This document shows positions 8,201 through 51,079 of a stretch of DNA of 64,000 nt, in pieces; positions within the stretch are counted from its first letter, which is position 1; every line of letters starts with the position of its first letter. Below the pieces are notes generated by a model. It did no database searches. It saw only the letters and a program-made list of their open reading frames with translations, and had not been told where the DNA came from. Made by a program: the position numbers and the translations under genes. Origin of the DNA: a virus (taxonomy: Duplodnaviria; Caudoviricetes); IMG/VR virus record IMGVR_UViG_3300029305_003514, positions 1-64,000 of that record, one strand, 5' to 3'.

Positions 8201-9260
8201 CGAAGCTTTATATGATCGTTCTATCGAAACCCAGCAACAAGCTTTAGATAAAAGCCTTGAAATTTATCGCCAAGAGCAAGAGGCAAAAATGGAAGAACTT
8301 GATGCTTGGCTTGAAAAAGAAGAGGCGATAATTGCAGAAAGCTATGCAACTATTTCTGCTAATACGGAAGCAATCCATGCCAATATTGAAGCAATTTCTG
8401 ATAAGTATGGAATAGAAATTGAAAATAATGTTGTTAATCCTTGGACTGCGGGCATTACAGCTCTTGGCACATATGGTACTGAATTAGATACTGCAACAAG
8501 CAAATATGTTGAAATGCTCGGTAGAGTCAAGCAAGAACTTATAGACTTACAGGAGACTGCTGACAAAACCGCTGTATCAATTATCAATGCTACAAATAAA
8601 ACTTCTAGCAATACTATATCTGTTGGCAAAAGTCCCGCTCCATCTAATCCTCCTTCTACTCCTACTACATCTAGTGGTTATAGTACCGGGCAACAAGTAA
8701 CTGTTAAATCTAGTGCTACTCATTTTGCTCGTGATGGTGGTAACGGTACTAAAATGCAAAGATGGGTTCCCGGTAGTACATTTACTGTTATGCAGGTCGA
8801 TGGAAACCAGGTTCTTATTGGAATTCCTGGTCAGGGTTATACCGGTTGGGTAAATAAGAATGATTTAATTGCGAAATATGCTAAGGGAACTACTGGAGTT
8901 AAAAATGATCAACTTGCATGGATAGATGAGAACGGCTTAGAAGAACTTGTTATGCATGCTGAAGGCGGCAAATTAACATATTTAACCAAGGGTTCATCTG
9001 TTATTCCACATGATATTACTGAGAATCTTATGGAATTAGGCAAGGTTGATCCTAAAACTTGGTTGGAAAATAATCGTAAAACTAGTGTGCCTGCAAGCTT
9101 TGTAACAAATAATAATACAATTGATTTAAGCTTCGGCTCATTAATTAATATTGAGCATGCAGATAGAGATTCTATACCTGAAATTCAGGATGCTGTGAAG
9201 AAGCAAATGGATGCTTATATGAAAAATATTAATTCTAATCTCAAGAGATTTACAAGATGA
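2282..9260 (+). CDS. Tail tape measure protein, exon 2
   Basis: GYTLKEASALAESTGILLNVSE continues in frame into ORF 2424..9260. It has long coiled coils, hydrophobic segments, an ALVGELGPE motif and a C-terminal SH3-like segment (GYTGWVNKNDL). Confidence 0.92.
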
Positions 9261-9264
9261 TTTA

Positions 9265-9292
9265 TAGGGGCTGAGCAATCAGCCCCTTATTT
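9265..9292 (+). terminator. Intrinsic terminator-like hairpin after TMP
   Basis: ggggctga-gcaa-tcagcccc followed by ttattt. Confidence 0.65.
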
Positions 9293-9309
9293 ATAAAGGA
9301 GGTGTACAA

Positions 9310-10767
9310 ATGGCAGTATACCAAAAGAAATTTACATTTAATAATCGAAGCAATAAAGATTTTGGATTAATTGTAACACGTTTTAATCCAGATAATGGCG
9401 AGGTAGACAGTTACTTAACAACAGAGTCTGTATATAGTGATAGCTTTAATGGTACTAAACGTCATGATTATGGCGCAAAATATAATGCCACTACTATCCT
9501 ATATATTACTATGGTGAAAAATAATTATGCAGATTTTTCTCGCAAAGAACTTAGAGAAGTACTTAATTGGTTAACCAATTTAAATAAAGTGTCTTGGCTT
9601 GATTTATATAATGATGACACCCAAGAATTTGCATTTGCTTTTCTTGGAAGAGTAATCAATGTAAAATTGCAAAAATTAGATGCCCGCATAGTTGGTATTA
9701 ATGTTGAGTTTGAATCTGTTAGTCCGTGGGCTTATTCTAACGTAAATCATAATGAAATGACTTTAGATGGAACTAAAACTCTTTATTCTATTTGTAATTG
9801 TTCTGACGAATCTTCAATATATGTTTACCCAAATGTAACGTTTATTAATAAAACAGCTAATGGAAGTTTACATATATTAAATCGTACTACAGGAGAGGAA
9901 ACACTTATACAAAATCTCGGTATGAGTGAAACAATTACATTAGATAGTAATAAGATTATATATTCAGATAAGTCAAATAAAGTTTTTGGTAATGACTTTA
10001 ATTCTAACTGGCTTAGATTTATACAAGGATATAATCATTTAGAAATTACTGGTTTCGGCCATTTAATTATTGAACATAGAGATATTATTAAAGTTGCTGA
10101 CGCCTTTGATGATGCAGATGCTATGAATACAGAAAAGGCAAATAAAAATTCATTATTTTTAGCTCATATTCATCTTATGACTAACGAATGGATTTTAAGT
10201 GATAAATTAACAAATGGTAAAATTACATATTATCAGCCAATTACAAATTTAAGTGTCACACCAAATTCTTTAATTAATATGCAGCCAACAAATGTTCAAC
10301 TTTTATCTATTCAAGCAGAAGGTGTAGAGTTGCAACTTGTTAATGATAATGGCAAAGTAATTGCTTATTCATATGGTGGAGTTTTATCAAATAATTACGA
10401 AATACAAATCACTATCGAAGAAACTGATGTTGAAATAAGCCATCGCTATGGCGTGGCAAATCTTTTTGCTGATTCTTGGGCTGGTCAGGGCAACACATAC
10501 ACTCAGCCTGTTTATTTACCGAATTTAACTAAAAATTCTATTATAGATATTGATTTGACAGAAATGCAAGAAGCCATGTTGGAAAGTGACGGCACCACAT
10601 TAATTATTACTAATGAAAATAAAAATGCGGTAGCTTATGCCCTTGGATTTAAACCAGATACTGATTATCAAATCAATCTTATTATTACTGAAACCGTAAC
10701 GCAATCTAATAAGGCTAGAATGTGGAACGAAGAAAATCTGCCCTATGCAGAACCAATTTATTTTTAG
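9310..10767 (+). CDS. Distal tail protein (Dit) with C-terminal duplicated extension
   Basis: Directly follows TMP. N-terminal FTFNNRSNKDFGL...FESVSPWAYS...WLRFIQGYNHL resembles siphophage Dit. Confidence 0.75.
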   Translation: MAVYQKKFTFNNRSNKDFGLIVTRFNPDNGEVDSYLTTESVYSDSFNGTKRHDYGAKYNATTILYITMVKNNYADFSRKELREVLNWLTNLNKVSWLDLYNDDTQEFAFAFLGRVINVKLQKLDARIVGINVEFESVSPWAYSNVNHNEMTLDGTKTLYSICNCSDESSIYVYPNVTFINKTANGSLHILNRTTGEETLIQNLGMSETITLDSNKIIYSDKSNKVFGNDFNSNWLRFIQGYNHLEITGFGHLIIEHRDIIKVADAFDDADAMNTEKANKNSLFLAHIHLMTNEWILSDKLTNGKITYYQPITNLSVTPNSLINMQPTNVQLLSIQAEGVELQLVNDNGKVIAYSYGGVLSNNYEIQITIEETDVEISHRYGVANLFADSWAGQGNTYTQPVYLPNLTKNSIIDIDLTEMQEAMLESDGTTLIITNENKNAVAYALGFKPDTDYQINLIITETVTQSNKARMWNEENLPYAEPIYF

Positions 10768-10791
10768 TAGTTTTAGAAAGGAGGTTCTATC

Positions 10792-13422
10792 TTGAGACTG
10801 CCAAAAAATCTTTTATCGGACTCTTATAGAGCACCGGCAGTATATTTATGTCAAACCAGTAAAGAACGTATAGGCGAATTGACTGTTAATAATTTCAAAG
10901 GCACATTCAAGTGGAACGCCTATAGCGAAATTTCATTTGATATTGACAGAAATTATTGTGACATTAATATGGGTGATATTAATATTAATCCATATTATGA
11001 TTTAGTTGAGGCTTTACGTCTTGTTGAAGTTGAGGGATTTGGATTTTTTCAACTACAAGATCCAGAGGTTGATAGTGATGGTATCAAAGAAACAAAATCT
11101 ATTAAGGCCAACTCTTCTGAGTATGATTTGTCACAAAGATATCTTGAAAATTTCATTATAAATAAAGGTATATCTGGTAGTATTGACGGTGTTCAATTAT
11201 ATGACCAAAATGATGCGACACATTCATTATTACATTTGGTTATTGCGGAAAAGGCTCCAGATTGGAAAATTGGACATGTCGATGCTGAGCTTGCTACTCA
11301 ACGTAGATTTTTTGAAATTGATAGAAGTACCGTATACGACTTCTTAATGAATGATTTATGCGAAACATTTAAGTGTGTAATAGAGTTTGATACATATGAT
11401 AATACAATTAATGTCTATGCAGAAGAAACTGCAGGCATGGATACTGACGTATCAATTACTTTTGAAAATTTATCAAATAAAATTAATATAAAATATTCTG
11501 CAGATGATATTAAAACTGTATTAACTGTTAAGGGCGCAGATGATTTAAATATTCGTGAAGTTAATTATGGTTTGCCGTATATTACTGATTTATCATATTA
11601 TCATACTATTGACTGGATGGGTCAGGATTTATATGATGCATATGCAAATTATTTACAAATAGTTGAGGATAATAAAGAGGTATATTTAAAATCTAAAAAT
11701 GATGCTCGTGTATATAGTAAGGAAATTTCAGATTTTAAAAATAGAGTTGATGAAAATTTAACTGATGCTAAAATTAATGATTTTTATGATTTTATTTTAG
11801 CGCTATATAAAACCAATACAGTTGATGCAGAAAAAATGAGCGTACTTGATGCAAATTTCGCATATATTAATCGTTATTCATGGTCAGAATTTAAGTCAGC
11901 AATGGAGGATGTCTCATATACGGTTGATCAAAAAGAAATAGCAATTTTAAAAATACTTTCAATTATTTGGGATGCGTATGGATTAAATACATTAAAAATA
12001 TATGAGTCTTCTTATAAAGAAAGACAAGCTGCAGAAGTTGCTCAAGGAATGTCCAATCTTACAAATGAAAATTATTATCAATATCATGCTACATTCACCA
12101 TGTTGAATTCCGTGCAAAATGATATTGCTGAAAGAAATACATCAATTAATACAGTGCAAAAAAATTTAGATAATGTTAATGCACAAATTTCTAAAATTGC
12201 AGAAAATGTATCTTTGCAAAATAATTTAACTCAAGAACAGATAATACGTCTTGCCCCTTTTTTACGTGAAGATGAGTATTCTGATGATAATTTCATAGTG
12301 ACAGAAACTGAAACCGATGATCAAAAATTAGAAACACAGGAAGAATTATTAAAAGCGGGCTATACTGAGTTGCGCAAAATTAGCGAACCTAAATTATCAT
12401 TTACTACTGAGGTTTTAAATGTATTTGCACTTGATGAATTTGCGCCAATTGTAAATCAATTCCAGCTTGGCAATATGATAAAAATTGAATTGCGCCCCGA
12501 TTATGTTAAAAAATCTCGTTTGTTAGAGGTCGAAATTTCTTTTGATAATCTAAAAGATTTTAGTGTAAAATTTGGAGACTTATTATCTGTGCGCGATGAA
12601 GCTGATATTCATGCGGATTTATTATCGCAAGCAATTAACGCTGGTAAAAGCGTAGCAAATAATTCTTCTAAGTGGCAAAAAGGATCAGATGCAGCCAATT
12701 CCATTCAGCAAGCAATCAATCAAGGTTTGCTAGATGCTACAACTGAAATTAAAGCTATGGATGGCACCCAAGCTATCAGCATAGATAAATATGGTATACA
12801 TCTTCGCAAAGAAGAAAATGGAGTAATAGATCCTGAACAAGGCTGGATTGTATCAAATAAATTTTTATACACGGATGATGCTTGGAAAACCACAAAATCA
12901 GTATTTGGTAAATTTACATATAAAGACCAAGAAAGATGGGGTATCTTAGCAGATGCTCTTGTTGGTGGATATGTTGCGGGTTCGCAAATTGAAGGTGGCG
13001 AGATTCGAATTGGGCAAATTCCAGGAACAGACGATTATACATTTGTTGTTACATCTGACGGCAAAGTTCAAATTAATGCATGGGGCGGAGAAATTGCAGA
13101 TAGAGTAGATAAAATTGAAGATAGTATTAACACCTATACTATATCAATAGAATCAAGTAATCTACCAGTATTTGATGAAAATATACGTAATACTCGATTG
13201 ATATGTAGTATTATTCAAAATGGGCAAAAAATTGAAGCACCAATTGGAACAACATATACATGGATTCGTTCTTCTAGCGATGAATTGTCTGATGAATTAT
13301 GGAATAAAGATTCGTCTCATAAAAATCTACTTAATAATGATCTTGTAATAGAATCTAGTGATGTAGAAAATAGTGCTCGTTTTATATGTGAAGTATATAT
13401 ACCAGAAGATGATATATCATAA
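10792..13422 (+). CDS. Tail-associated (Tal-like) baseplate hub / minor structural protein
   Basis: Follows Dit. Prophage tail-protein-like N-terminus, central coiled coil and IDKYGIHL motif. Confidence 0.7.
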   Translation: MRLPKNLLSDSYRAPAVYLCQTSKERIGELTVNNFKGTFKWNAYSEISFDIDRNYCDINMGDININPYYDLVEALRLVEVEGFGFFQLQDPEVDSDGIKETKSIKANSSEYDLSQRYLENFIINKGISGSIDGVQLYDQNDATHSLLHLVIAEKAPDWKIGHVDAELATQRRFFEIDRSTVYDFLMNDLCETFKCVIEFDTYDNTINVYAEETAGMDTDVSITFENLSNKINIKYSADDIKTVLTVKGADDLNIREVNYGLPYITDLSYYHTIDWMGQDLYDAYANYLQIVEDNKEVYLKSKNDARVYSKEISDFKNRVDENLTDAKINDFYDFILALYKTNTVDAEKMSVLDANFAYINRYSWSEFKSAMEDVSYTVDQKEIAILKILSIIWDAYGLNTLKIYESSYKERQAAEVAQGMSNLTNENYYQYHATFTMLNSVQNDIAERNTSINTVQKNLDNVNAQISKIAENVSLQNNLTQEQIIRLAPFLREDEYSDDNFIVTETETDDQKLETQEELLKAGYTELRKISEPKLSFTTEVLNVFALDEFAPIVNQFQLGNMIKIELRPDYVKKSRLLEVEISFDNLKDFSVKFGDLLSVRDEADIHADLLSQAINAGKSVANNSSKWQKGSDAANSIQQAINQGLLDATTEIKAMDGTQAISIDKYGIHLRKEENGVIDPEQGWIVSNKFLYTDDAWKTTKSVFGKFTYKDQERWGILADALVGGYVAGSQIEGGEIRIGQIPGTDDYTFVVTSDGKVQINAWGGEIADRVDKIEDSINTYTISIESSNLPVFDENIRNTRLICSIIQNGQKIEAPIGTTYTWIRSSSDELSDELWNKDSSHKNLLNNDLVIESSDVENSARFICEVYIPEDDIS

Positions 13423-13434
13423 GGAGGTGTTAAA

Positions 13435-16400
13435 ATGGCAAAATACACATCTAATTCAATTACTATTATAGATAATTTAGATAATATTAATTTAGAATTA
13501 ATTATATCTAGTAATTTACCTAATACTCAGGTTCTTAGCAAAGGAGTTTATTCTCCATCATGGGAAGACACGCCGTTAGTTTTAACACCTTCCGTTTATG
13601 TTAGGAATAAACAAGTTTCAAATCCAGATATTGTATGGCAAAGACGATCTGGAGGATTAGAATATACTTCTAATTTTATTTCTGGAGAATCTATTGTTAA
13701 TGGAATATTAACTATTAATAAAAATATTTTAAATGCCAATGAAAATAGTATAGTTACATATAAATGTACTGTTACATATGGAGGAGCTTCACGTTCTGAA
13801 GAAGTAACTTTTGCCATAAATATTATAGGTTCTGATGGTAAAGATGGTTCTAGTGTTTCTGTTAAAGGCTCTGCTTACACTTCAGAGGCTTCTTATGTAG
13901 TAGGTAATAATTATTATCTTTATTCTGATTCTGGATTAACTACGCAAATAAAAGGCGCTCAACTTGGTGATTCATATCTTGTTGGCGGTCATTTATTTGT
14001 ATATAGCGGAGATACGAATTTTAAATTTCAATGTGTTGGCAATATTAAAGGTGTAGGAATTACATCTATTACTGGCCCCGTATCAAGTGGATTAGAGGAT
14101 GAATATACAATTCATTATTCGGACGGAACTACTTCGACATATACGGTTGTTAATGGTGCAAGCGTTAAAGGTTTAGATTTATATGCATCCACATATACTG
14201 TGCCTTATGATAGTCAGGGTAATTTAAAAAATAATTCAGATATTATTTTAACGGCGCATCAGCAAAATTCTACTTCGCCCATAACATGGACAACCACAGA
14301 TAATGTCACTCTTAGCGGAAGCGGCAATATTAGAACTCTTTCTGCGAGTGCTTTTAATGATAGAGATTCTATACAAATTTCAATTAGTGCAGACGGATTA
14401 AGCGATGTGGTCACTATAGTAAAAATACAAGACGGTTTGACTGGTTCTAAAGGAGAATCGTCTTTTATAACATATAATGATAGCGCATCTACTCCTAGCA
14501 CTCCTACTGGCTCAGGCAATACAAATGGATGGCACACCAATATGACTAGTGCTTCTGTTTGGATGAGTCAAAAGGTTGCGGCGAATATTGCTTCTGGTAC
14601 ATGGGGAGCACCAGTTAAAATTAAAGGTAGTGACGGAAAAGGTGTTGCGAGTACTGCTGTTACCTATCAAGTATCAAGCTCTAGCTCCGCAGCTCCTACA
14701 GGAACATGGAATACAACACTGCCTGCTGTGGGTGACAATCAATACCTTTGGACAAGAACAATAATGACTTTTACTGATGGTACTACATCTACTGGATATA
14801 GTGTAGGTGGTGCTGGAGCAAACGGCATAGATGGACGCGGCATTGAAACTACTACCGTTACCTATCAAGCTGGAACAAGTGGAACTATTCAACCTACAGG
14901 AGTATGGTCTTCTACTATACCATCCGTTGCCGCAAATCAATATCTTTGGACAAGGACTGTTTTAACATATACCGATAATACTGAGAGCACATCATATAGC
15001 GTTGGTAGAATAGGCGCTAGCGGCGTAGATGGATATACTGTATTATTAACCAATGATAGTCATACATTTGCTGGTTCTACTAGCGCTGCCATTGCAGGAA
15101 ATACAACTTGTAATGTTATAGCATATAAAGGTGCGACACAGATTGCTTCTACAATTGGAACTATTGCTAATATTCCTACAGGAATGAGTGTATCTATATC
15201 TAATAATGGAACATCAAATGCTTCATTTACAGTTACCGTCACTACAAGTATGGTTACTAGAAGTGGAGTGCTTACAGTGCCTGTAACAGTAGATGGTAAA
15301 ACTTTTAATAAAAACTTCTCATACTCCATTGCATTAAAGGGTGACGCTGGTACATCAAGTGTATTATTTCAAATATACTCTGATACTGGATTTGTATTTC
15401 ATAATGAGGAAAGTATTACTTTAAAATTACAAAAATTATATGGAGCAACCAATATTGCTCTAAGTGGCACTACTAAAGTCCAATGGAGTAAATTGGTTGG
15501 TGGAAGTTGGATTAATACATGGAAATATGATAGCGGTGATACTACTAATGTAGCTACTACTGAAGAAACATTAGTTGTTAAACATAATGAAGTCGATGGA
15601 ACTCAATTATATCGTTGCGTTTTAACATATGGTGGAAAAACATATAGTGATATTGTTACTATTACAAATAAGATAGATGTTTATCAGTCTGAAATTATTT
15701 CATTAGGTGGAAACGTCCTCAATGGTGGAGAAAAAGGAATTATAGCTTATGCTTCAATATTTTATGAGACAGATGAAGTAGATGCAATGCTATGTCCAAT
15801 TTATTTAGAAGGCTCCACTCCTATTGATAATCAAATATATTATGTTCTTGAAGGTAATAATATTGTAACTAAAAAATATTCAAGTGGTGCATGGGCAAAT
15901 GACACCACCATTAAACAAGAATATATGTATTCTTGGTTTATTTTAGACAAATATACTGGTCAACAACAATCTATTGGTAGCGGTAAAGTAATATATATTA
16001 CTAATGAAGCTATATCTAAATCTGGAATTGTGCAGTGTAAAATTGGAGATATCTCTGTATGTACAGAAACATTCACGGATGGCAACGATCCAATTATTAG
16101 TGCCGAGCAACCAGATGTTACAACCGTAGGTCAATTATGGCTAAATACTGAGGATGGTATTTTATATGCTTATAGGGCCGCTAATAATGCTTGGGAACCT
16201 GTTAATTCTGGTCAAAATAGAACATATACTTCTGCGCCAATAATTAGAGCGGATTGTTGTTATTATAAAAAAGGCGACCTTTGGATTGTTGGAGAGTCAG
16301 ATTCTTCATATACAGATGCAAAGGTTGGCACACTTCTTATTGCAACAAATAGTCTTTCCGATGGAGCAGATGGCTGGTCTGCAGCAACATGGAAGAATAG

Positions 16401-17112
16401 ATTGGCTATAGACTGGGAAAATAAACTATATTATGATGAAGCACTTAATAATATTAGTGATTATCAACAAAGATTAAGTGCATATATGAATTTTGATGTA
16501 GATGGGTTAAAGATTGGCGCTACAAATACTGATTTTTATACTAAAGTTACACCTTATGATTTAGGGTTTTATCAGGGAGTAGAAAAAGTTGCATATATTA
16601 GTAATAATAAAATGTATAATACTTCTCTTGAAGTTTCAAACGGTGTTCAAGTTATAAATCATAAAAGCAATGATCAACCAAATCCACAAAAACCATATTT
16701 TATGTTAGGCAATTACAAATTTATTATTGAGGAAAATAATAGTATGTCTATTGCTTATTCGTTATTGACTGCGCCGCAGCCCAATGTTGTTAAGTATACT
16801 GTAGCATCTACTTCCTTAGATATTCATTTTGGCCCATGGTCAACTAGTGACTCTTATGGATATAGGTCTAATTTTGATGCCACTACATTGGCAACGATTA
16901 AATTATTTACAGTAGAAGGTATAGAAATATCAACAACAAAAACATATGCTAATCCATATATAAGGATTACTTCATCTTCCGCATTACCATCTACTTTTAT
17001 AGTTCAAATACCCGCACATTCAGTATATAATCAAGGGGTTTCTGGAAACACTCTTGGATATGATATTACAGATGTGGGTAATGATACAATTGCATTAACA
17101 ATAAATAAATAA
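13435..17112 (+). CDS. Tail fibre / host-specificity minor structural protein
   Basis: Thr/Ser/Gly-rich with short collagen-like GxxGxDG segments and two copies of VTYQxxxSxxxxPTGxWxxTxPxVxxNQYLWTRT. Confidence 0.75.
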   Translation: MAKYTSNSITIIDNLDNINLELIISSNLPNTQVLSKGVYSPSWEDTPLVLTPSVYVRNKQVSNPDIVWQRRSGGLEYTSNFISGESIVNGILTINKNILNANENSIVTYKCTVTYGGASRSEEVTFAINIIGSDGKDGSSVSVKGSAYTSEASYVVGNNYYLYSDSGLTTQIKGAQLGDSYLVGGHLFVYSGDTNFKFQCVGNIKGVGITSITGPVSSGLEDEYTIHYSDGTTSTYTVVNGASVKGLDLYASTYTVPYDSQGNLKNNSDIILTAHQQNSTSPITWTTTDNVTLSGSGNIRTLSASAFNDRDSIQISISADGLSDVVTIVKIQDGLTGSKGESSFITYNDSASTPSTPTGSGNTNGWHTNMTSASVWMSQKVAANIASGTWGAPVKIKGSDGKGVASTAVTYQVSSSSSAAPTGTWNTTLPAVGDNQYLWTRTIMTFTDGTTSTGYSVGGAGANGIDGRGIETTTVTYQAGTSGTIQPTGVWSSTIPSVAANQYLWTRTVLTYTDNTESTSYSVGRIGASGVDGYTVLLTNDSHTFAGSTSAAIAGNTTCNVIAYKGATQIASTIGTIANIPTGMSVSISNNGTSNASFTVTVTTSMVTRSGVLTVPVTVDGKTFNKNFSYSIALKGDAGTSSVLFQIYSDTGFVFHNEESITLKLQKLYGATNIALSGTTKVQWSKLVGGSWINTWKYDSGDTTNVATTEETLVVKHNEVDGTQLYRCVLTYGGKTYSDIVTITNKIDVYQSEIISLGGNVLNGGEKGIIAYASIFYETDEVDAMLCPIYLEGSTPIDNQIYYVLEGNNIVTKKYSSGAWANDTTIKQEYMYSWFILDKYTGQQQSIGSGKVIYITNEAISKSGIVQCKIGDISVCTETFTDGNDPIISAEQPDVTTVGQLWLNTEDGILYAYRAANNAWEPVNSGQNRTYTSAPIIRADCCYYKKGDLWIVGESDSSYTDAKVGTLLIATNSLSDGADGWSAATWKNRLAIDWENKLYYDEALNNISDYQQRLSAYMNFDVDGLKIGATNTDFYTKVTPYDLGFYQGVEKVAYISNNKMYNTSLEVSNGVQVINHKSNDQPNPQKPYFMLGNYKFIIEENNSMSIAYSLLTAPQPNVVKYTVASTSLDIHFGPWSTSDSYGYRSNFDATTLATIKLFTVEGIEISTTKTYANPYIRITSSSALPSTFIVQIPAHSVYNQGVSGNTLGYDITDVGNDTIALTINK

Positions 17113-17125
17113 GGAGGTGCTATAA

Positions 17126-19282
17126 ATGGCAACAAGTGGATCTTTTACTACTACGTCCTATGAAGGCCGTAGTTTAACATTTTCTTGGAGTAGAACAAGT
17201 ACAAATATAGCAAACAATACTTCTACAATAGCATGGTCTGTTACTGGTAGTGGTTCTTATACTGCTGGTTGGGTTACATGTGGTGATATTGACGTAGTCA
17301 TTAATGGCACCACTGTCTATAATAGTTCTTCGGATAATCGTGTTAATGTATGGAGCGGAACAACTGTTGCAAGTGGAACCACTACTATTACACATAATGC
17401 CGATGGTAGTAAATCATTTTCTGTCAGTGTGAATGCGGCGATTTATACTTATGCACAAAACTGTAGTGGCAGTGGGACTTTTGCATTAGATGCTATTCCT
17501 AGAGCATCTAATATTGATAAGATTACAAATGCAAGTGGTACTGCGATAGCCACTATAGATACCAACAATGCCATTAGAGTATATTTTACACCTAAATCAA
17601 CTACATTTAAGTATAGAGTAACGGTTACCATGAATGGGCAAACTTATCAAAACAATTCTGCGGGCGTTAGTGTAACTAGTACGGCTCAAACTTATTATCA
17701 AACTTCCGCAATTCCTCATACATGGATTCCAAATGCAACTTCTGGAACACTTACCTGTAAACTTGAAACATTAAATGGAACAACTGTAATCGGCACAAAT
17801 ACAAAAACCATTTCTATGACTGTGCCCGCCTCTGTTGTGCCTACACTTGGTACTCTTTCATCTACCCCATATAATACAAACTCAATAATTAATGGTTGGG
17901 GTATCTATGTTGCAAATTATACTAAAGCAAGACTAACCTGTACTGCATCTGGAAATGGTGGATCAACTATTAAAAGTTTTCAAATTAGTGGAGCAGCTAC
18001 AACTACAATCAATGGAACTTCATTAAGTTATGATGCAGCATTATCTTCTGGCGGAAATAAAACTTTTAATGTTATAGCTATTGATAGTAGAGGAAGATCT
18101 AGTGCAAGCAAATCTGTGACTATTAATGTAGGAACATATTTTACTCCATCTATATCATCCTTTGGTGTTATTAGAACAGATACAAACGGAAATGCTAGTG
18201 AAAATGGTACTGCGGCAAAATTATCATTTGCTGGCAGTTATTCAAATATTGGCGGTAATGCGTCTACTGCAAAATTTTCATATAAATTATCTACTGCAAC
18301 AACATATACTACAATTAGTACTACTGTTGCTGGTATAAATGGTGGCATTAATGGCGGTATTATTGTAAGTAATGTATCTTTTAGTACTGCCAGTGAATAT
18401 GATTTTCAGATTCAAATATCTGATTCATTAGGTAATTCCGTATCTAGAACTGTTCGACTTGGTACGGTTACTAGGACTATGAACGTAGCCAAGTATGGCA
18501 ACGGTGTTGCAATAGGTAAAATGTCAACAATAGCAAATAAAACAGATGCAGGCAAACTTGAGGTTGGTTGGGATGCTGATTTTGATAAGAATGTTAATAT
18601 TGACGGTAATATTGCAGTTTGGGGAACATCTGTAGTTAATGGCAATACTACATTAGGCGGCGCATTAACAACCACAGGTGCAATTAATTCTAAAAATAAT
18701 ATTAACATGGGTGGCTTAAATGGACAAACTGGCGAGTTATCTATTAGATTTTCAAATCCAACCACCTCCACATATCCTCATAATACATATTTTTATGGCG
18801 GTAATCCAAGTAATGTAAATGCGATTGGTTGTTATGATGGTAAAAATAATCGAGCAGTTTGGAGTTACAACGACACAAATAATTCTCTTTCGTTTGGCAA
18901 TAGTAATGCTGCTATATATTTTAATGGTAGTAAAATGGCCGATTTTGTTGTAGAACAAGGAGCTTCTGGAGTTTGGAGATATCGTAAATGGAATAGCGGA
19001 TTTGCTGAATGTTGGGGATATCATACTGTAAGCGGATTAAACATCAGTACAGCTTGGGGAAGTTGGTATTCTTCTCCAGCAATTGTATTGCCATCATTCC
19101 CATTCACCTTTTCTGGCACTCTCGATATTCACGTTAGTTGGGAAAGTGATTTTTCTGCAATTATAGACGGAGTTGGCAAAAGAGAATCGACAAAAGCAGG
19201 ACAAGTATATTTATATAGACCTGTTGCACAAACAAATGTAAATGGTAGATTTTCAATATATGCATATGGTAAATGGAAGTAA
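17126..19282 (+). CDS. Siphovirus minor structural / receptor-binding protein (DUF859-like N-terminus)
   Basis: NIANNTSTI...ALDAIPRAS N-terminus and a C-terminal ADFVVEQG..WRYRKWNSGFAECWG domain typical of Firmicutes phage tail tips. Confidence 0.75.
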   Translation: MATSGSFTTTSYEGRSLTFSWSRTSTNIANNTSTIAWSVTGSGSYTAGWVTCGDIDVVINGTTVYNSSSDNRVNVWSGTTVASGTTTITHNADGSKSFSVSVNAAIYTYAQNCSGSGTFALDAIPRASNIDKITNASGTAIATIDTNNAIRVYFTPKSTTFKYRVTVTMNGQTYQNNSAGVSVTSTAQTYYQTSAIPHTWIPNATSGTLTCKLETLNGTTVIGTNTKTISMTVPASVVPTLGTLSSTPYNTNSIINGWGIYVANYTKARLTCTASGNGGSTIKSFQISGAATTTINGTSLSYDAALSSGGNKTFNVIAIDSRGRSSASKSVTINVGTYFTPSISSFGVIRTDTNGNASENGTAAKLSFAGSYSNIGGNASTAKFSYKLSTATTYTTISTTVAGINGGINGGIIVSNVSFSTASEYDFQIQISDSLGNSVSRTVRLGTVTRTMNVAKYGNGVAIGKMSTIANKTDAGKLEVGWDADFDKNVNIDGNIAVWGTSVVNGNTTLGGALTTTGAINSKNNINMGGLNGQTGELSIRFSNPTTSTYPHNTYFYGGNPSNVNAIGCYDGKNNRAVWSYNDTNNSLSFGNSNAAIYFNGSKMADFVVEQGASGVWRYRKWNSGFAECWGYHTVSGLNISTAWGSWYSSPAIVLPSFPFTFSGTLDIHVSWESDFSAIIDGVGKRESTKAGQVYLYRPVAQTNVNGRFSIYAYGKWK

Positions 19283-45510: not shown

Positions 45511-46621
45511 GTGTTTCTCCAGTTTGTCTAAGCATTAAGATAATACCTTTTAATATTTGAACTATATATTCAATATCATCTTGAGTTAATGAATCACTAA
45601 CAGTAATACGAATTGTATTTAATGCCTGCTCGTTTGTTAATCCTATGGCTATCAATGTTGAGCTTGGGATGGATTCTCCGCTACTACATGCTGACCCTGC
45701 AGATATATATATGCCATATAGGCTTGCCATTGTTACAAAGTCTGATGCTTTTATACCATCTATAGTAAGTGAAATATTATTGTATAAACGATTAGAATTT
45801 AATTCTGGCCCATTTAAATATACATCAGGGATTTCCAATAGCTTAATGGCTAGCTCATCACGAATTAGTCTTGTATTGGCATTTTTCTCTTCTTGAAATT
45901 TGCGGGCTAATTCTAATGCTTTTCCCATTCCTGCAATAGCCGCAACATTATATGTGCCGCCTCTACGATAATTTTCTTGAGATCCACCAATCAAAGGATT
46001 GAGATTAATCCCATTTCGGCAATACAGAAATCCAATACCTTTAGGGCCATTAAACTTTTGCGCTGATACAGACATCATATCAATACCAAGTTCTTTTACA
46101 TTAATACGTTGCTCTGGATAAAGCTGTGTCGCATCAACATGAAAGATATTATTATAGCGATGTATGAATTTAGAAATTGATTCAAGGTCTTGAATAACTC
46201 CGATCTCACTATTTGCCGCATGGACTGAAACCAGCCAATTATGTGCGCCAAGATCGACCAAAGTACTATTATCTAAAATAATATTACCTTTAACATCATT
46301 ATTAAAATAAAGCGGATCTTGACAAATAGTTTCAATAGATTTATGCTCTAACCTTGTTGTACATATCTTTTTAGCTGCTGTAAAAGCAAGACTATTTGCT
46401 TCACATGCACCACTTGTAAAAATAATTTCTTCCGGAAGACATCCAATATCTGCGGCAATTTGATCCCTTACTCTCTCAACAATTTCTTTAGCATCTGAAC
46501 CTAATTGATGTTGAGAAGATGGGTTGCCATAATGATTTAACATCGTATCATAAACTACATCTGCAACTTCTTTATACGGTCGAGTCGTTGATGCATTATC
46601 TAAAAAATACCCTTTCATCAT
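45503..46621 (-). CDS. iscS: Cysteine desulfurase (IscS/NifS family)
   Basis: LDNASTT, GNPSS, FTSGACEAN, HVDATQ, SAQKFNGPKG and SAGSACSS. Confidence 0.92.
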   Translation of the reverse strand: MMKGYFLDNASTTRPYKEVADVVYDTMLNHYGNPSSQHQLGSDAKEIVERVRDQIAADIGCLPEEIIFTSGACEANSLAFTAAKKICTTRLEHKSIETICQDPLYFNNDVKGNIILDNSTLVDLGAHNWLVSVHAANSEIGVIQDLESISKFIHRYNNIFHVDATQLYPEQRINVKELGIDMMSVSAQKFNGPKGIGFLYCRNGINLNPLIGGSQENYRRGGTYNVAAIAGMGKALELARKFQEEKNANTRLIRDELAIKLLEIPDVYLNGPELNSNRLYNNISLTIDGIKASDFVTMASLYGIYISAGSACSSGESIPSSTLIAIGLTNEQALNTIRITVSDSLTQDDIEYIVQILKGIILMLRQTGETHE

Positions 46622-46687
46622 GTCACCTTTCTTTAATTTTGTATTGTAATTATATCATACATTACTTAATTTGTCAATAGTATAAAA

Positions 46688-46713
46688 AGAAAAGGGCGTA
46701 TAAAAACGCCCTT
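46688..46713 (-). terminator. Terminator ending the tRNA cluster transcript
   Basis: aagggcgt...acgccctt, with a minus-strand T tract. Confidence 0.65.
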
Positions 46714-46903
46714 AGATGTGAAATTATATGGATATATAGAAGGGGTTGGTATCTTTTAATTTAACTGAGAGATACCGAACTCAGTTCAACAAAGCGGGAG
46801 GACTATCCTCCATACTGTATTCTGCTGATCTTTTCATTGGCATATACCTCCTTGTTGAATTAACTCTTAGGTCAGTTAGCCACACATATTACATTTGTTC
46901 ACA

Positions 46904-46978
46904 TGGAGCTGGTAACAGGACTCGAACCTGCAACCCAGTGATTACAAATCACTTACGCTACCATTGCGCCATACCAGC
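46904..46978 (-). tRNA. tRNA-Thr(UGU)
   Basis: Cloverleaf; anticodon arm AGTGA-TTTGTAA-TCACT; encoded CCA. Confidence 0.93.
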
Positions 46979-47009
46979 AAATATGTCACCTTAGTGACAA
47001 GTTTAAACT

Positions 47010-47168
47010 TTATCTTTGATTCCTTAGTATATATCTAAGATATTCAAATGCCGCAGTTAGTTCTGCATTAGCATAATCCAACATATCTTCAGAGCAATTA
47101 TTAAAAAGAAATTCGGCATATTCAAGCCTATCTTTTGCATATCTTAATTCATCTTTTTCATTAAACAT
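47010..47168 (-). CDS. YaaL/DUF2508-like small protein (52 aa, not in ORF track)
   Basis: MFNEKDELRYAKDRLEYAEFLFNNCSEDMLDYANAELTAAFEYLRYILRNQR; SD AGGAG. Confidence 0.55.
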   Translation of the reverse strand: MFNEKDELRYAKDRLEYAEFLFNNCSEDMLDYANAELTAAFEYLRYILRNQR

Positions 47169-47304
47169 TGTAATTCTCCTAATTGAATAATTAAGCTGGC
47201 TACTGCACCTTGTACTTCGGCATCAACACCAGTAATCGGTAACGATGCAGGCACCGTCTCCTTTAAGGCTAATCCTTTCAAGCAATATTTAAGTCTCACT
47301 TACT

Positions 47305-47399
47305 TGGCGGAGCAGATTGGACTTGAACCAACACGACAAGCAGAGCTCATCTACTGGCTGTTTAGCAAACAGCTGCCTTACCATTAGGCTTACTGCTCC
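47305..47399 (-). tRNA. tRNA-Ser(GCU)
   Basis: Anticodon arm GCTGT-TTGCTAA-ACAGC, long variable arm, G73 and CCA. Confidence 0.92.
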
Positions 47400-47533
47400 T
47401 CATCTTTATGTTTCTTCTTGCGCGAATATTTAAATCCTTTACCCTTTTTGGGAGTTATTTGTGTTCCTCGTCTCTTAAACTGAAGATATTCTCTTAATTC
47501 CTCAGGGGTTTTCTTAAAAATACTTTTATCCAT
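47390..47533 (-). CDS. ArfA-like basic micro-protein (47 aa, not in ORF track); stop codon inside tRNA-Ser
   Basis: MDKSIFKKTPEELREYLQFKRRGTQITPKKGKGFKYSRKKKHKDEEQ with SD AAGGGAG. The KKGKG..Y.RK.KH motif resembles ArfA. Confidence 0.65.
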   Translation of the reverse strand: MDKSIFKKTPEELREYLQFKRRGTQITPKKGKGFKYSRKKKHKDEEQ

Positions 47534-47555
47534 AATTAAACTCCCTTCTTTTAAT

Positions 47556-47629
47556 TGGTGGAAAATGTCGGAATCGAACCGCTACCCATGCTCCCAAGGC
47601 AAGTGTGTTACCATTACACTACATTCTCC
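47556..47629 (-). tRNA. tRNA-Pro(UGG), atypical acceptor/T stems
   Basis: Anticodon loop CTTGGGA, TTCGATT T-loop and CCA; folds best with an 8-bp acceptor stem and 4-bp T stem. Confidence 0.8.
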
Positions 47630-47735
47630 ATATACCTTTTAAACTGGCTCATGCAAGAGCGTCCTCTCGTTCTAACCAGTTATAAGGTGAACACAATTCA
47701 TAGTGTTCCTCTGCATGATTTAATAGAACCTTACT

Positions 47736-47811
47736 TGGGGGCGGTGGCTGGATTCGAACCAGCGATTCCTAGCTTATGGGGCTAGTGAGATGACCACTTC
47801 TCTACACCGCT
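47736..47811 (-). tRNA. tRNA-Met(CAU), initiator-like
   Basis: CTAGC-CCCATAA-GCTAG, 1x72 mismatch, A11:U24 and CCA. Confidence 0.88.
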
Positions 47812-47926
47812 ATATTACGCCTAGCGTCCGCAGAACCTCGTTGCGCACCGATAGGTTTTTAACAGAGATAGCAGTAAAAGTAATGAGCTGAACCGCACAA
47901 ACGTTAACATAACCAACTAGGCTGAC

Positions 47927-48002
47927 TGGTTGGGCTGGCGGGATTCGAACCTGCGGAATGACGGAGTCAAAGTCCGTTGCCTTACCACTTGGCTACAGCC
48001 CA
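47927..48002 (-). tRNA. tRNA-Gln(UUG)
   Basis: ACGGA-CTTTGAC-TCCGT, U1:A72 and CCA. Confidence 0.93.
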
Positions 48003-48221
48003 ATATTAATATGGTCTGTCCCACTGTCAAGCGTCTTTCCGCTTTGTCATTTGGTATCTTTATAAAGCGAGGCCGCACATGACCTCAAAATAAATCGTCC
48101 GACGCATCTATTCTCAGCATTGTTAATTCTTAATCGTTATCGGAACCAAATAGCTACTTAAGGTTACGGCTTCTACCTTCGATGTACATATTATTTATTT
48201 TTTGTGCTACTCTATAAAGAT

Positions 48222-48297
48222 TGGTGTTCCCTGCGGGATTCGAACCCACGACCCTTTGATTAAAAGTCAAATGCTCTACCGACTGAGCTAAGAGAAC
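48222..48297 (-). tRNA. tRNA-Lys(UUU)
   Basis: TTTGA-CTTTTAA-TCAAA and CCA. Confidence 0.95.
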
Positions 48298-48300
48298 ATA

Positions 48301-48377
48301 TGGTACCGGTGGCAGGACTCGAACCTGTAAAAACTAGTTCCTAAGACTAGCGCCTATGCCAATTCGGCTACACCGGC
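48301..48377 (-). tRNA. tRNA-Leu(UAG) lacking the long variable arm
   Basis: CTAGT-CTTAGGA-ACTAG; variable region is only TTTTT; A73 and CCA. Confidence 0.88.
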
Positions 48378-48448
48378 ATGTAAAGAGCAACTCGGATTTG
48401 AAGATTCCACTTTTATCTCTCCGATATAACTACATTGCTCTATGTGGA

Positions 48449-48524
48449 TGGCTCCTCGTACTGGGCTCGAACCAGTGACCCTGCGGTTAACAGCCGCATG
48501 CTCTACCTACTGAGCTAACGAGGA
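48449..48524 (-). tRNA. tRNA-Asn(GUU)
   Basis: TGCGG-CTGTTAA-CCGCA, G73 and CCA. Confidence 0.95.
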
Positions 48525-48533
48525 ATATGTAAT

Positions 48534-48872
48534 TGATAGAATTGATATCCTACACTCTAACCTAGCCCTAAGGCTGCTAGAACCTCTCCAATAATTTTGT
48601 ATTGCTTTCCACGCCTCGGAATATCAATTGAAGTCTATCGTTGTACAATTACTAGGTACTTCTTCCTAGGTCAAATCTCTACTTAATCCCGCCTATTCTG
48701 GGTATCGATATGACTTGACTGCTTATGCCATTAAGCATCGAAAGATTTTAATAAACCATCTTCCACACTCAGGTAAACTTATTATTCTTTCGTATAGGCT
48801 AATACCTGGCTCTCATAGGCTTGATTTGCATTTTCTTAAATAGAGTGCTAATCCCTATTCCCATCTCTATCA
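48534..48872 (-). ncRNA. Putative structured ncRNA (about 340 nt) in the tRNA cluster
   Basis: Ends pair (tgataga/tctatca), long-range cactcta/tagagtg and aattgatat/atatcaatt pairings, and no ORF in the track. Confidence 0.5.
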
Positions 48873-48919
48873 TTATAGTTAATGAACCAGCCAAGATATA
48901 TCATTTCACTTGGACTTCT

Positions 48920-49006
48920 TGGTGGCCCAGACCGGACTCGAACCGGTACGCTGTTGTCAGCAAGGGATTTTAAGTCCCTGGTGTCTGCCAATTCCACCAC
49001 TGGGCC
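48920..49006 (-). tRNA. tRNA-Leu(UAA)
   Basis: AGGGA-CTTAAAA-TCCCT, long variable arm and CCA. Confidence 0.95.
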
Positions 49007-49073
49007 ATAACTTTAATTTTGTATCGTAATTATATCATATATTTTTCAATTTGTCAATAGATTTTATAAAGTT

Positions 49074-49531
49074 TTTGCTACGCATCCAGCCTGGAGGTCA
49101 ACCTAAGGATATTGGCCACTAATCCAAACCTTTAATCCAGGATTTTATAAATCTTTGTGGGCTCCGCATTATCGTTTTATGTATATATCTTTAATTATAT
49201 CATCATCTATATTATTAATTATATTAAATATTTTAACGATAATACTTCTTAGCCCTCTTTACATCTTTAACCAAATGACCTTTGAAGCGCCAACCCATGG
49301 CGCAATAAAAAACTTTAAACCTTGAACTCTAAACCTTAAACTTTCAACTTTGATCTTTACAGTAAATATTTAATATAAAAATCCTTTAACATAAAAGATC
49401 TTAGCATTACAGATTAACAGTCTGTCGCACCAATTGTTTTGAGGCCACTTTATTTAAATATTTTATCTCCCTCTAAGCGGCCAAAAAAGAATAGAGAAGT
49501 AGTCATTTTAGGTTTTCGGATGCGTAGCAAA
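49074..49531 (-). ncRNA. Putative structured ncRNA (about 460 nt) with a 14-bp closing stem and heptamer array
   Basis: Perfect inverted repeat tttgctacgcatcc (49074-49087) / ggatgcgtagcaaa (49518-49531), many internal helices and no ORF. Confidence 0.7.
49310..49358 (-). repeat. Seven tandem heptamers (consensus AAAGTTT on the minus strand)
   Basis: AAAGATC AAAGTTG AAAGTTT AAGGTTT AGAGTTC AAGGTTT AAAGTTT. Confidence 0.85.
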
Positions 49532-49540
49532 TTAGTCTAC

Positions 49541-50194
49541 TTAATATTCAATTGTAATAGTAGTAGTTGCGTTCGAAACGCTTAGAGCCGAATCAATTTC
49601 AGTATTAAACTTATCAATCTCATCAGCAAGTTCTTCAATCATCTTGGTGACATTAAGAGGATCAATTAGGTCATAAGTGTTATTCTCAATGTAAGTCTTA
49701 CGAAGAGCCTTCATTGCATCGCCATCAATAGACATCTTAGCATCCTTAGGCTGCGCAGCAATAACATCAAGAATATACTTTTCCGCTCTCTTTTCAATAG
49801 CTTCGCCGCTATTGCGATTCAGTTCCATCTGCGCGGTTACATTCTGACTTGCAACAACACGCATATAATAATCCTTAAACTTCATGCCGTGATTTTTCAT
49901 CTCAATGGCTTCAGCAACAGTGTACTCAACATTATCAACCTTAACCTTTGTAGTCGCATTAGAAAGTACAACTGCTCTCTTAATAGCATTACGGCGGTTA
50001 ATCAGATCGGTAACCTTATTATGACAAGCTCTTATATGATCCTTGAATTCATTAATAGTCTTACCCTGAATCTTCTCGTTAGAATGCTTATTTGCAATTA
50101 CATAAGTTCCTTCGGTAATAGCCTTATTAATACGGCTATCAATAACCTTAAGTTCTGCAAGTGCACGATGAATAGTCATCTGTTCCTTATTCAT
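49541..50194 (-). CDS. Conserved coiled-coil protein (resembles the DIP1984/'septicolysin'-annotated hypothetical family)
   Basis: MTIHRALAELK...YTVAEAIEMK...LIDPL...EIDSALSVSNATTTITI; strong SD AGGAGGAG. Family assignment is from recall only. Confidence 0.7.
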   Translation of the reverse strand: MNKEQMTIHRALAELKVIDSRINKAITEGTYVIANKHSNEKIQGKTINEFKDHIRACHNKVTDLINRRNAIKRAVVLSNATTKVKVDNVEYTVAEAIEMKNHGMKFKDYYMRVVASQNVTAQMELNRNSGEAIEKRAEKYILDVIAAQPKDAKMSIDGDAMKALRKTYIENNTYDLIDPLNVTKMIEELADEIDKFNTEIDSALSVSNATTTITIEY

Positions 50195-50230
50195 AATTAA
50201 CTCCTCCTAAATTTTGAACTTTATAATCTC

Positions 50231-50305
50231 TGGTATACCCTAGAAGTATCGAACTCCCATTTCTCGGTTCGTAGCCAAGCGTTCTATCCATTAAACTAAG
50301 GGTAT
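50231..50305 (-). tRNA. tRNA-Arg(ACG)
   Basis: CTTGG-CTACGAA-CCGAG and CCA. Confidence 0.92.
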
Positions 50306-50405
50306 ATATTGTGCTGACACAGAACCCACTTGTCAGCTTTGTGACTCCACTCAACATCGTCACTTTCCGTCATTATTATATCACATTAATTTTGTATTGT
50401 CAATA

Positions 50406-50684
50406 TCAAAGTTCAGCTACTGCATCCTTAAGCGCCTTTGCAGCCTTAAACTTAACAACCTTCTTAGCAGGAACAGTGATCTCGTCACCAGTCTGAGGAT
50501 TGCGTGCGGTACGTGCTGCCTGCTCGTTGATTACAAGCTTACCAAAGCCCGGATACTCGAAATCCTCACCAGAAGTAAGAGTATTAATAATAGCATTCAT
50601 AACACTCTCAACAGTTTCCTTAGCTGCAACCTTGGTGGTCTCGCGGCCCTCAGCGTACTTCTCAATAAATTCAGTCTTGTTCAT
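50406..50684 (-). CDS. hup: HU histone-like DNA-binding protein
   Basis: MNKTEFI, GFGK, ARTARNPQTG and FKAAKALKDAV. Confidence 0.95.
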   Translation of the reverse strand: MNKTEFIEKYAEGRETTKVAAKETVESVMNAIINTLTSGEDFEYPGFGKLVINEQAARTARNPQTGDEITVPAKKVVKFKAAKALKDAVAEL

Positions 50685-50746
50685 TTCAATTTCTCCTTTG
50701 TTGTTTTAATTTTGTACTGTAATTATATCATATTATTTTGGGTTTG

Positions 50747-51079
50747 TCAAGAGGTTTTCTTATTATATTTAGAAAATTTTGAGCACATATTATTTATATC
50801 CTTGATAAAATACTCTACCCTCTTATCAAAACTCTTATAATAACGATCCATAATGCGCTTCTTAGCAATCTGCTTGCCGATTTCAACATCAAACTTATCA
50901 GCAGGATCACATGTCACCACTACTCTAAAAGAATGAGGCATAAGACACTTCTCATTATAATAATATGCAAAGTTTCCACTATCAACAATCTTATTGATCT
51001 TCTTGATAACATCAAATCTTGTTCCATTAAGAACAGCGACAATCTGCTTCTTTTCTTCATTCGTATAATACTTAATCAT
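50747..51079 (-). CDS. Conserved phage hypothetical protein
   Basis: CDPADKFDVEIGKQIAKKR motif; has its own promoter. Confidence 0.6.
   Translation of the reverse strand: MIKYYTNEEKKQIVAVLNGTRFDVIKKINKIVDSGNFAYYYNEKCLMPHSFRVVVTCDPADKFDVEIGKQIAKKRIMDRYYKSFDKRVEYFIKDINNMCSKFSKYNKKTS

Follow-up and report, generated by a model that had tools for sequence, protein, structure and literature searches.

We analysed a window of 64,000 nucleotides, positions 1 to 64,000 of the IMG/VR virus record IMGVR_UViG_3300029305_003514 (a 162,354-bp tailed-phage genome, 99% complete), and found that its minus strand encodes at 49073-49532 a genuine, conserved and pseudoknotted RNA of about 460 nt. This RNA lies directly behind a gene for a 217-aa protein of the family phrog_1491. 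Homology and synteny across phages show it to be genetically coupled to that gene, and comparison with Rfam identifies the window copy as a divergent full-length member of the RAGATH-27 family. Only the first 86 nt had been catalogued before, as RAGATH-27; the full-length RNA, the array of 7-nt repeats (heptads) within it and the link to a protein go beyond that entry. Gene and RNA may specify a widespread and hitherto unrecognised class of phage ribonucleoprotein (RNP), conserved from gut Bacillota phages to T5, in which a dimeric helical protein would polymerise on the heptad track of a doubly pseudoknotted 3' untranslated region (UTR) scaffold, feed back on its ribosome-binding site (RBS) via the same heptads, and act early on host RNA metabolism or translation. 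To this reading, taken as a whole, we assign a probability of about 0.35. The coordinates of all features are collected in Table 1.

A preliminary description of the window, made from its letters alone, had pointed to an element free of open reading frames (ORFs) and closed by a perfect 14-bp inverted repeat. The repeat (49074-49087 / 49518-49531) was confirmed directly in the sequence. Together with one outer A-U and one inner G-U pair it forms a 16-bp helix, P1, which begins 8 nt after the stop codon of the 217-aa gene (49541-49543). The lack of coding capacity was borne out as well: just two frames of 48 and 56 aa were found, on the opposite strand and unconserved, and the homologous intergenic regions vary by insertions and deletions of arbitrary length, which argues against coding. 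The folding energy of the element is below that of shuffled sequence on both strands (z = -3.56 for the minus strand and -4.51 for the plus strand). Recognisable DNA similarity extends over the non-coding stretch in all 13 IMG/VR loci found with the protein, and a first alignment of 11 sequences yielded 37 pairs in RNAalifold, with compensatory changes in 20.

The structural model was built on a larger alignment, A3, comprising 29 sequences drawn from a further 80 protein-profile loci and 50 RNA-pattern loci, none of the sequences being more than 92% identical to another. All column pairs of A3 were scanned for stacked, covarying helices; the variable middle of the RNA is not reliably aligned. 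The final model has 7 helices and 47 pairs, with 95.2% of cells paired in the 29 sequences against 76.7% in shuffles. Its covariation score of 0.550 compares with 0.207 in shuffles, none of 500 reaching the observed value, and drops to 0.065-0.101 after a shift of the 3' partners by 1-3 columns. Double-sided, compensatory changes were found in 30 of the 47 pairs. The inner pair of P1 (columns 22/627) is G-U in all 29 sequences, and columns 14/635 form a G-U pair in 22 of them. Because these invariant G-U pairs would be A.C on the opposite strand, the RNA must be read in the direction of the gene. Covariation and G-U asymmetry among the 29 homologues thus support the earlier proposal of a discrete, closed and structured RNA on the strand of the gene.

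In this model an invariant GGCUG motif (49087-49091) precedes the 3' strand of P1, and the two pseudoknots PK1 and PK2 pair the 5' single strand (CGAAAACC...GACUACU) with the loop enclosed by helix P6, giving a doubly pseudoknotted core. PK1 of the window copy carries one A.C mismatch. Among the internal helices listed in the preliminary description, covariation upheld cctgga/tccagg (P6), ggccactt/aagcggcc (P2) and gggct/agccc and, more weakly, aaacct/aggttt (PK2); attatcgtt/aacgataat and gcgcca/tggcgc proved to be lineage-specific inserted hairpins, and for gatcttt/aaagatc a local hairpin is the better explanation. Another perfect inverted repeat, 15 bp long and made up of A/T only (49219-49233 / 49364-49378), joins an AU-rich hairpin insert specific to the window to the stretch immediately 5' of the heptad array. 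Relatives do not conserve it, and it may be due to chance or represent a lineage-specific pairing.

The heptad array sits between the 5' strand and the 3' hairpin, beside the variable hairpins. Tandem Repeats Finder (TRF) retrieved the seven tandem heptamers seen previously as a repeat of period 7 with 7.1 copies (49310-49359), and further AAAG units start at 49283, 49268, 49260, 49156 and 49133. The heptad columns are conserved in 29 of 29 rows of A3, in phase after the invariant CUGUAAAG, each unit having A in the first two positions, purines in the third and fourth and U in the sixth; up to seven strict units follow one another in a row, with more AAAG units after them. The RNA of the window contains 12 AAAG against 4.0 in shuffles, an approximately three-fold excess, and 8-15 are counted per RNA in its clade against 3-4 in shuffles. 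The heptad tract is thereby supported as a hallmark of the RNA family. Since the column-pair scan of A3 detected no conserved pairing partner for it, the tract is probably displayed single-stranded.

The relation to RAGATH-27 (Rfam RF03100), a motif from the survey of Weinberg et al. 2017 (PMC5737381), corrects the statement in the preliminary description that the RNA family was not recognised: the 5' 86 nt of the family are RAGATH-27, although the window copy stays below the cut-off. With cmscan, the 5' 88 nt aligned to the whole model (1-86) at 31.6 bits (E = 0.022, on 521 nt), the gathering score of 76.1 not being reached, and Rfam scans of the element and its surroundings returned nothing beyond this sub-threshold match. 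The window copy shares with the RAGATH-27 consensus the strand CGAAAAC..AAAC followed by a hairpin with UAGA...AAAGAA, and this hairpin, P2, covaries. Searching IMG/VR with the consensus pattern of RAGATH-27 recovered 50 loci, in 48 of which a homologue of the 217-aa gene (46-49% identity) immediately precedes the motif. Full-length matches (positions 6-402) to a hidden Markov model (HMM) of the window clade were obtained with nhmmer in 46 of the 50, and the remaining two of the 48 gene-bearing loci end inside the RNA at the locus edge. Eight tested loci pass the Rfam gathering score (L034, L040, L043, L047, L051, L058 and L074 at 88-97 bits, and Dulem virus 39 at 77.2), and A3, which aligns the window clade jointly with RAGATH-27 loci, retains P1, PK1, P6 and P7. 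As bona fide RAGATH-27 loci have the same context and align over the full length, the 86-nt motif is the 5' end of an RNA of 300-460 nt. The Rfam model describes 86 nt with one 7-bp hairpin and an unpaired 5' strand, whereas in the window RNA this strand pairs, across 300-400 nt, with a 3' domain to form P1 and the two pseudoknots; neither the heptad array nor the protein partner is included in the catalogued motif. A literature search found no paper discussing RAGATH-27. The long non-coding RNAs of ICP1 and of phage K occupy different loci, and a preprint on Minerva describes another system.

The coupling of RNA and gene was then evaluated over a broad range of phages. Among the protein-profile loci, 79 of 80 have a P1-closed element starting 6-28 nt after the stop codon; the earlier suggestion that the RNA is tied to the upstream gene thus holds down to about 30% protein identity, and the position behind this one gene family is fixed in over 130 loci. 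With 4389 clusters at the 90% identity level and 2311 clusters at the 50% level, the protein family is large; at about 30% identity it is present in 745 records of cultured phages. We inspected ten cultured-phage records: T5_ev219, JSF10, Pontus, BIS47, phiPsa300, Rebecca, phiL47, SecTim467 and AR1086-1 (about 30% identity), and Dulem virus 39 (50%). All ten show an unannotated gap of 360-830 nt after the gene, and in nine the gap contains an element closed by a helix of 10-21 bp with the same CG|AAA and GGC|UG junctions; in phiPsa300 the gap and the 3' motifs are present and the closing helix P1 was not resolved. The layout occurs in T5 and in Klebsiella, Vibrio, Lactococcus, Clostridioides and Brevibacillus phages, hence with both Gram-positive and Gram-negative hosts. 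All other neighbouring genes differ among these phages, and the conserved unit is therefore the gene plus the RNA.

Additional support came from R1, a covariance model of the 3' domain. R1 matches exactly at the predicted 3' end in Dulem virus 39 (E = 7.8e-9), AR1086-1 (3.4e-5), SecTim467 (1.2e-3) and phiL47 (3.4e-3); it is marginal on JSF10 (E = 0.28), misses T5 and hits 0 of 9 control loci. The negative controls were loci found by chance: about half of the IMG/VR hits of a first 17-mer pattern carried no RNA or gene and were rejected (L015, L019, L020, L021, L023, L025, L030 and L032). Comparing T5 with BIS47, a compensatory change in PK1 can be read from the sequence (AUCUUA/UAAGAU versus AUCUUG/CAAGAU). 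Homology of the RNAs of T5 and of the Vibrio phage JSF10 is suggested by architecture and motifs rather than by a significant model score. The T5 homologue of the protein is VUF55327.1, and the RNA species of T5 is predicted at LR597655.1 43178-43534 (minus strand, about 357 nt). Rfam reported no family at E up to 1 in T5, JSF10, phiL47 and AR1086-1, and no description of an RNA following this gene in T5 came up in the literature search.

The 217-aa protein matches the phrog_1491 profile with an E-value of 1.4e-49 (residues 3-216 against positions 2-210 of 211). Nothing informative on its function was retrieved from Pfam, NCBIfam, PADLOC, sequence and profile searches of the PDB, Foldseek against the PDB or the ESM Atlas, and the only matches in BFVD were uncharacterised phage proteins. 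The AlphaFold model (predicted local distance difference test, pLDDT, of 91.6) consists of long helical hairpins capped by small sheets, and a motif S-N-A-x-T, repeated twice, is among the invariant positions. The best structural match is 3kdq, an uncharacterised Corynebacterium protein (Z = 10.9 over a background Z of about 7, root-mean-square deviation of 7.7, 151 of 152 residues aligned). An oligomeric protein had been postulated, and self-association is indeed predicted: modelling two copies gives a symmetric homodimer with a score of 0.67, against 0.00 for the best of three controls. Among 30 proteins whose solved structures are pairs of one chain, 20 attained this mark, compared with 1 among 23 solved as single chains. 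The homodimer runs share at least 84% of contacts, with a partner pLDDT of at least 87, both being expressions of model confidence and not measurements.

The PHROG label "tail fiber" has no visible basis, and the annotation is probably wrong across T5-like, Vequintavirinae and 949-like records. The gene lies outside the tail module of the window; its neighbours are tRNA genes, HU and FolD, and a host-type promoter precedes it. In phiL47 the homologue is orf109 and the structural genes are ORFs 157-182. The fold searches found no fibre-like fold for the 217-aa protein.

Heptads are also found beside the RBS of the gene. The two heptamers that the preliminary description had placed next to the gene's own Shine-Dalgarno sequence are present at 50222-50209, directly before AGGAGGAG. 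In the window, AARGNUY occurs in the 40 nt upstream of 2 of the 35 ORFs bearing a Shine-Dalgarno sequence, one of the two being the 217-aa gene. Among non-redundant 5' UTRs of homologues, 17 of 33 contain AARGNUY, against 5 of 74 UTRs of other ORFs from the same loci, and in-phase heptad pairs are present in 14 of 33 against 2 of 74 controls. RBS-adjacent heptads are therefore much more common in homologues than ahead of other genes.

Concerning the locus, the plus strand of the window carries the tail module (2424-19282), including a tape-measure-like protein of 2278 aa, and the minus strand a long block with 10 tRNA genes between 46904 and 50305 together with the HU gene, FolD and others. 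The gene ordering on the minus strand is tRNA-Arg(ACG) (50231-50305), 217-aa gene (49541-50194) and the ORF-free 458 nt (49074-49531), in agreement with the earlier placement of the element in the tRNA region, just downstream of tRNA-Arg. A consensus promoter precedes tRNA-Arg (50375-50403) and no terminator-like site was seen between this promoter and the RNA, across tRNA-Arg and the 217-aa gene, which suggests that tRNA-Arg, gene and RNA form one early transcription unit. The RNA would accordingly be either the 3' UTR of the 217-aa gene or a product processed from that transcript. Three perfect TTGACA-17-TATAAT promoters with TG are found on the minus strand (50722-50750, 50375-50403 and 49029-49057), each preceding a short unit, namely HU, tRNA-Arg with the gene and the RNA, and tRNA-Leu, respectively. 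The two tRNA promoters also share a downstream block of about 20 nt, the repeat D4 (49007-49027 and 50380-50400). A second ORF-free stretch of about 340 nt (48534-48872) lies between tRNA-Asn and tRNA-Leu(UAA) and has no Rfam match in a scan of 46500-51000.

Table 1. Features of the RNA, its partner gene and the surrounding transcription unit (positions in the window)
Feature	Position	Strand	Remarks
Full structured RNA, about 460 nt, from P1 5' strand to P1 3' strand	49073-49532	minus	covariation on A3, nhmmer, synteny, single copy
P1	5' 49517-49532 (AUUUGCUACGCAUCCG) / 3' 49073-49088 (UGGAUGCGUAGCAAAA)	minus	10 of 16 pairs with double changes, 99.3% paired
PK1	5' 49498-49504 (GACUACU) / 3' 49114-49120 (AGUGGCC)	minus	3' strand inside P7 loop; 6 of 7 pairs with double changes, 95.6% paired
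PK2	5' 49511-49515 (AAACC) / 3' 49126-49130 (GGUUU)	minus	mostly invariant, one CG-to-UA pair; weak
P2	49476-49481 / 49444-49449	minus	6 of 6 pairs with double changes
P5	49356-49360 / 49147-49151	minus	tentative, nearly invariant
P6 (CCUGG/CCAGG)	49137-49141 / 49090-49094	minus	100% paired, 3 pairs with double changes
P7 (GGA/UCC)	49123-49125 / 49107-49109	minus	96.6% paired, 3 pairs with double changes
3' domain hairpin (P6 and P7)	49090-49141	minus	loop takes both pseudoknot strands; preceded by AAAAUCC (49140-49146)
5' domain resembling RAGATH-27	49442-49529	minus	conserved single strand CGAAAACC..AAAU, then hairpin P2
Main heptad array, seven in-phase AARRNUY units	49310-49358	minus	after invariant CUGUAAAG (49355-49362); TRF, alignment
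Two heptads AAAGUUC AAAAUUU	50209-50222	minus	abut Shine-Dalgarno AGGAGGAG (50201-50208) of the 217-aa gene, ATG at 50194
217-aa helical protein gene, phrog_1491	49541-50194	minus	ATG at 50194, stop 49541-49543; predicted homodimer
tRNA-Arg(ACG)	50231-50305	minus	first element of the inferred transcription unit
Sigma-70 consensus promoter TTGACA-17-TATAAT with TG	50375-50403	minus	12 of 12 matches; upstream of tRNA-Arg
Consensus promoter for tRNA-Leu(UAA)	49029-49057	minus	begins 16 nt past the RNA 3' end and so bounds the RNA

We suggest the following mechanism. The host polymerase would transcribe tRNA-Arg, gene and RNA as one early unit from the promoter at 50403-50375. A symmetric dimer of the protein would then bind the heptads and coat the tract, forming a phage RNP. 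Once the tract is saturated, free protein would bind the RBS heptads (50209-50222) and lower its own translation. We give an even chance to the RNP step, in which the dimeric protein binds the heptad track of the RNA from its own transcript, on the combined grounds of synteny, 5' UTR heptads and predicted homodimer. The second step, repression at the RBS-adjacent heptads, is plausible but weaker than the RNP step, and we consider it doubtful. From the promoter and the tRNA neighbourhood, our best guess is that the RNP has an early function linked to RNA or translation.

Several observations weigh against this proposal. Binding of RNA by the protein is putative; Pfam, NCBIfam and PADLOC assign the protein to no family, and no fold known to bind RNA was found for it. 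Synteny could reflect mere co-transcription or a cis role of the 3' UTR, and in SecTim467 (KT151957.1) a skipping-rope RNA (RF02924, 67.6 bits, L084:3137-3214) sits exactly between the gene and the P1-closed RNA. The heptad consensus drifts in distant members, among them JSF10 and phiL47 (for instance UUAAGNN in JSF10). As for the RBS heptads, the Fisher p-value of 5e-7 for the enrichment of AARGNUY overstates the case because the UTR sequences are related and the genomes AT-rich. Moreover, about half of the homologues have no strict heptad in their 5' UTR, and the heptad flavour of a 5' UTR is not matched to the array of its own locus (no own-versus-other signal).

Other explanations were weighed against the same data. 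The RNA may be an RNA-only machine, working by self-assembly into multimers or by catalysis as may be the case for ROOL and GOLLD, and then the heptads would be structural or mediate contacts between RNAs and the gene would be linked by a shared transcript. It is indeed large and pseudoknotted with a highly conserved core, and its closed ends suggest a stable, discrete molecule. Its location among phage tRNA genes is that of ROOL and GOLLD, which are described as large, intricately folded phage or prophage RNAs of unassigned function, often beside tRNA genes (PMC5737381), and as forming RNA-only complexes (10.1101/2024.12.08.627333). The window RNA differs from them in being smaller (300-460 nt), in having a periodic single-stranded heptad tract and in its strict link to one protein gene, a feature not reported for ROOL or GOLLD in the available part of the survey (PMC5737381). 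With cmscan run under permissive filters on sequences of 4.5 kb and 521 nt, ROOL (RF03087) and GOLLD (RF01998) gave no match at E up to 10. Furthermore, co-transcription by itself leaves unexplained that the same protein family (about 30% identity) stands before the RNA in phages of Bacillota and Proteobacteria while the other neighbours change, and heptads are also present at the RBS of the gene. An RNA-only machine thus appears rather improbable to us. The tract could alternatively be a decoy or sponge, whose single-stranded A/U-rich heptads titrate a host RNA-binding protein or ribonuclease, the phage protein being a chaperone or unrelated. CsrB- and RsmZ-type sponges, which work by titrating protein, provide a precedent. 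One such target would be RNase E, as R-N|W-U-U is similar to its enterobacterial preference. About a dozen copies of a short motif lie in a tract with no conserved pairing partner, and expression from a consensus host promoter would be early. However, the same heptad frame is kept across hosts with different RNases and chaperones (E. coli, Vibrio, Lactococcus, Clostridioides and Brevibacillus), there are no CsrA-type GGA motifs and the strictly linked phage protein is left unexplained. We regard a decoy as unlikely.

A purely cis-acting 3' UTR, which would have no function in trans and would serve the upstream mRNA by stabilising it, terminating it or shielding it from the next promoter, would agree with an RNA that begins 8 nt past the stop codon, with the terminator that follows it in SecTim467 and phiL47, and with the next promoter within 16 nt in the window. 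Yet a stabiliser or terminator would need far less than an RNA of 300-460 nt with invariant motifs and two covarying pseudoknots, and the conservation of the RNA sequence is above that of the flanks of the protein gene, so that we give this possibility little weight. Lastly, the perfect 14-bp terminal inverted repeat and the internal direct repeats could mark a DNA-level element, either a miniature inverted-repeat transposable element (MITE) or an iteron or origin. Only one copy is present in the 162,354-bp, 99%-complete record, at a position relative to the gene that is fixed in more than 130 loci, and compensatory changes with strand-specific G-U pairs indicate selection on RNA pairing. Single copy, fixed position and RNA-type covariation together exclude, for practical purposes, a MITE or another DNA-level element. 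The preliminary description had itself envisaged that the element might be a MITE or an Rfam family independent of the gene; besides being single-copy, the element belongs to a family whose RAGATH-27 loci carry the same gene.

In its logic, the proposed RNP resembles CsrA-CsrB/RsmZ, TRAP and HutP, with an oligomeric protein and a short motif repeated both on a dedicated RNA and near the RBS, binding being here predicted. The HutP sites (UAG-N4) have a period of 7 nt, identical to that of the heptads. Unlike in these systems, the motif is AARRNUY and not GGA, GAG or UAG, and the array is located inside a large pseudoknotted scaffold. No match to CsrA, TRAP or HutP was detected in Pfam, NCBIfam, PDB sequence or fold searches, and a distant relationship is possible. 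A likeness of another kind is offered by RAGATH-18, which serves as RNA partner to the TnpB whose gene lies immediately upstream (PMC11061315). Like the RAGATH-18 reRNA with IS607 TnpB and the omega-RNAs of TnpB and IscB, the window RNA is a conserved structured RNA beginning at the 3' end of a protein gene; and RAGATH-18, like the 5' end of the window RNA, was first catalogued as an orphan RAGATH motif and later found to be the RNA partner of a protein (PMC11061315). Only the gene-then-RNA layout is common to both, the 217-residue protein being all-helical with no nuclease, Pfam or other known domain found, and the module being single-copy with no transposon context.

If gene and RNA do form an RNP, it would be a new case of protein-RNA recognition, in which a 7-nt periodic track is read by a fold without characterised relative. 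Hundreds of large phages with tRNA genes carry the module, among them T5, which is amenable to genetics. An orphan Rfam motif of 86 nt now becomes a defined RNA of 300-460 nt with a partner gene, and the same step came before functional discovery for RAGATH-18 and HEARO. Several small "hypothetical proteins" annotated in GenBank inside the RNA are probably spurious. Thus, in SecTim467 the opposite-strand coding sequence (CDS) SECTIM467_11 overlaps the RNA and is probably spurious. Similarly, in Dulem virus 39 (PP511791.1, L014:2205-2662) the hypothetical CDSs XCD07466.1, XCD07536.1 and XCD07538.1 lie in or beside the RNA and tRNAs and are probably annotation artefacts; Rfam tRNAs at L014:2272-2363 and 2118-2201 are missing from the table of that record in this stretch.

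A few further observations were made on the related loci. In Erwinia phage Rebecca (MK514281.1), the variable part of the RNA (L171, about 1945-2010) contains a T-arm-like GCAGGUUCGAUUCCUGU and a D-arm-like GUAGCUCAGUCGGUUAGAGC in permuted order; a permuted tRNA was considered and rejected, as ARAGORN calls no tRNA there. The Brevibacillus phage SecTim467 also carries a BsrG-type RNA (RF01412, 119 bits, L084:3672-3946). In a related phage contig, a drum RNA (RF02958, 72.4 bits, L003:527-637) lies in the tRNA region upstream of the module. Finally, the stretch between the RNA and the next tRNA-Met contains another conserved block, non-coding and about 110 nt long (L003:4125-4242 in the same contig, with counterparts in L005, L006, L008 and L010), which has no Rfam match in L003 and L008; it comprises an AGGAGG, a hairpin GGAGGA...UCC and an ATG with which a micro-ORF of about 14 codons may begin.

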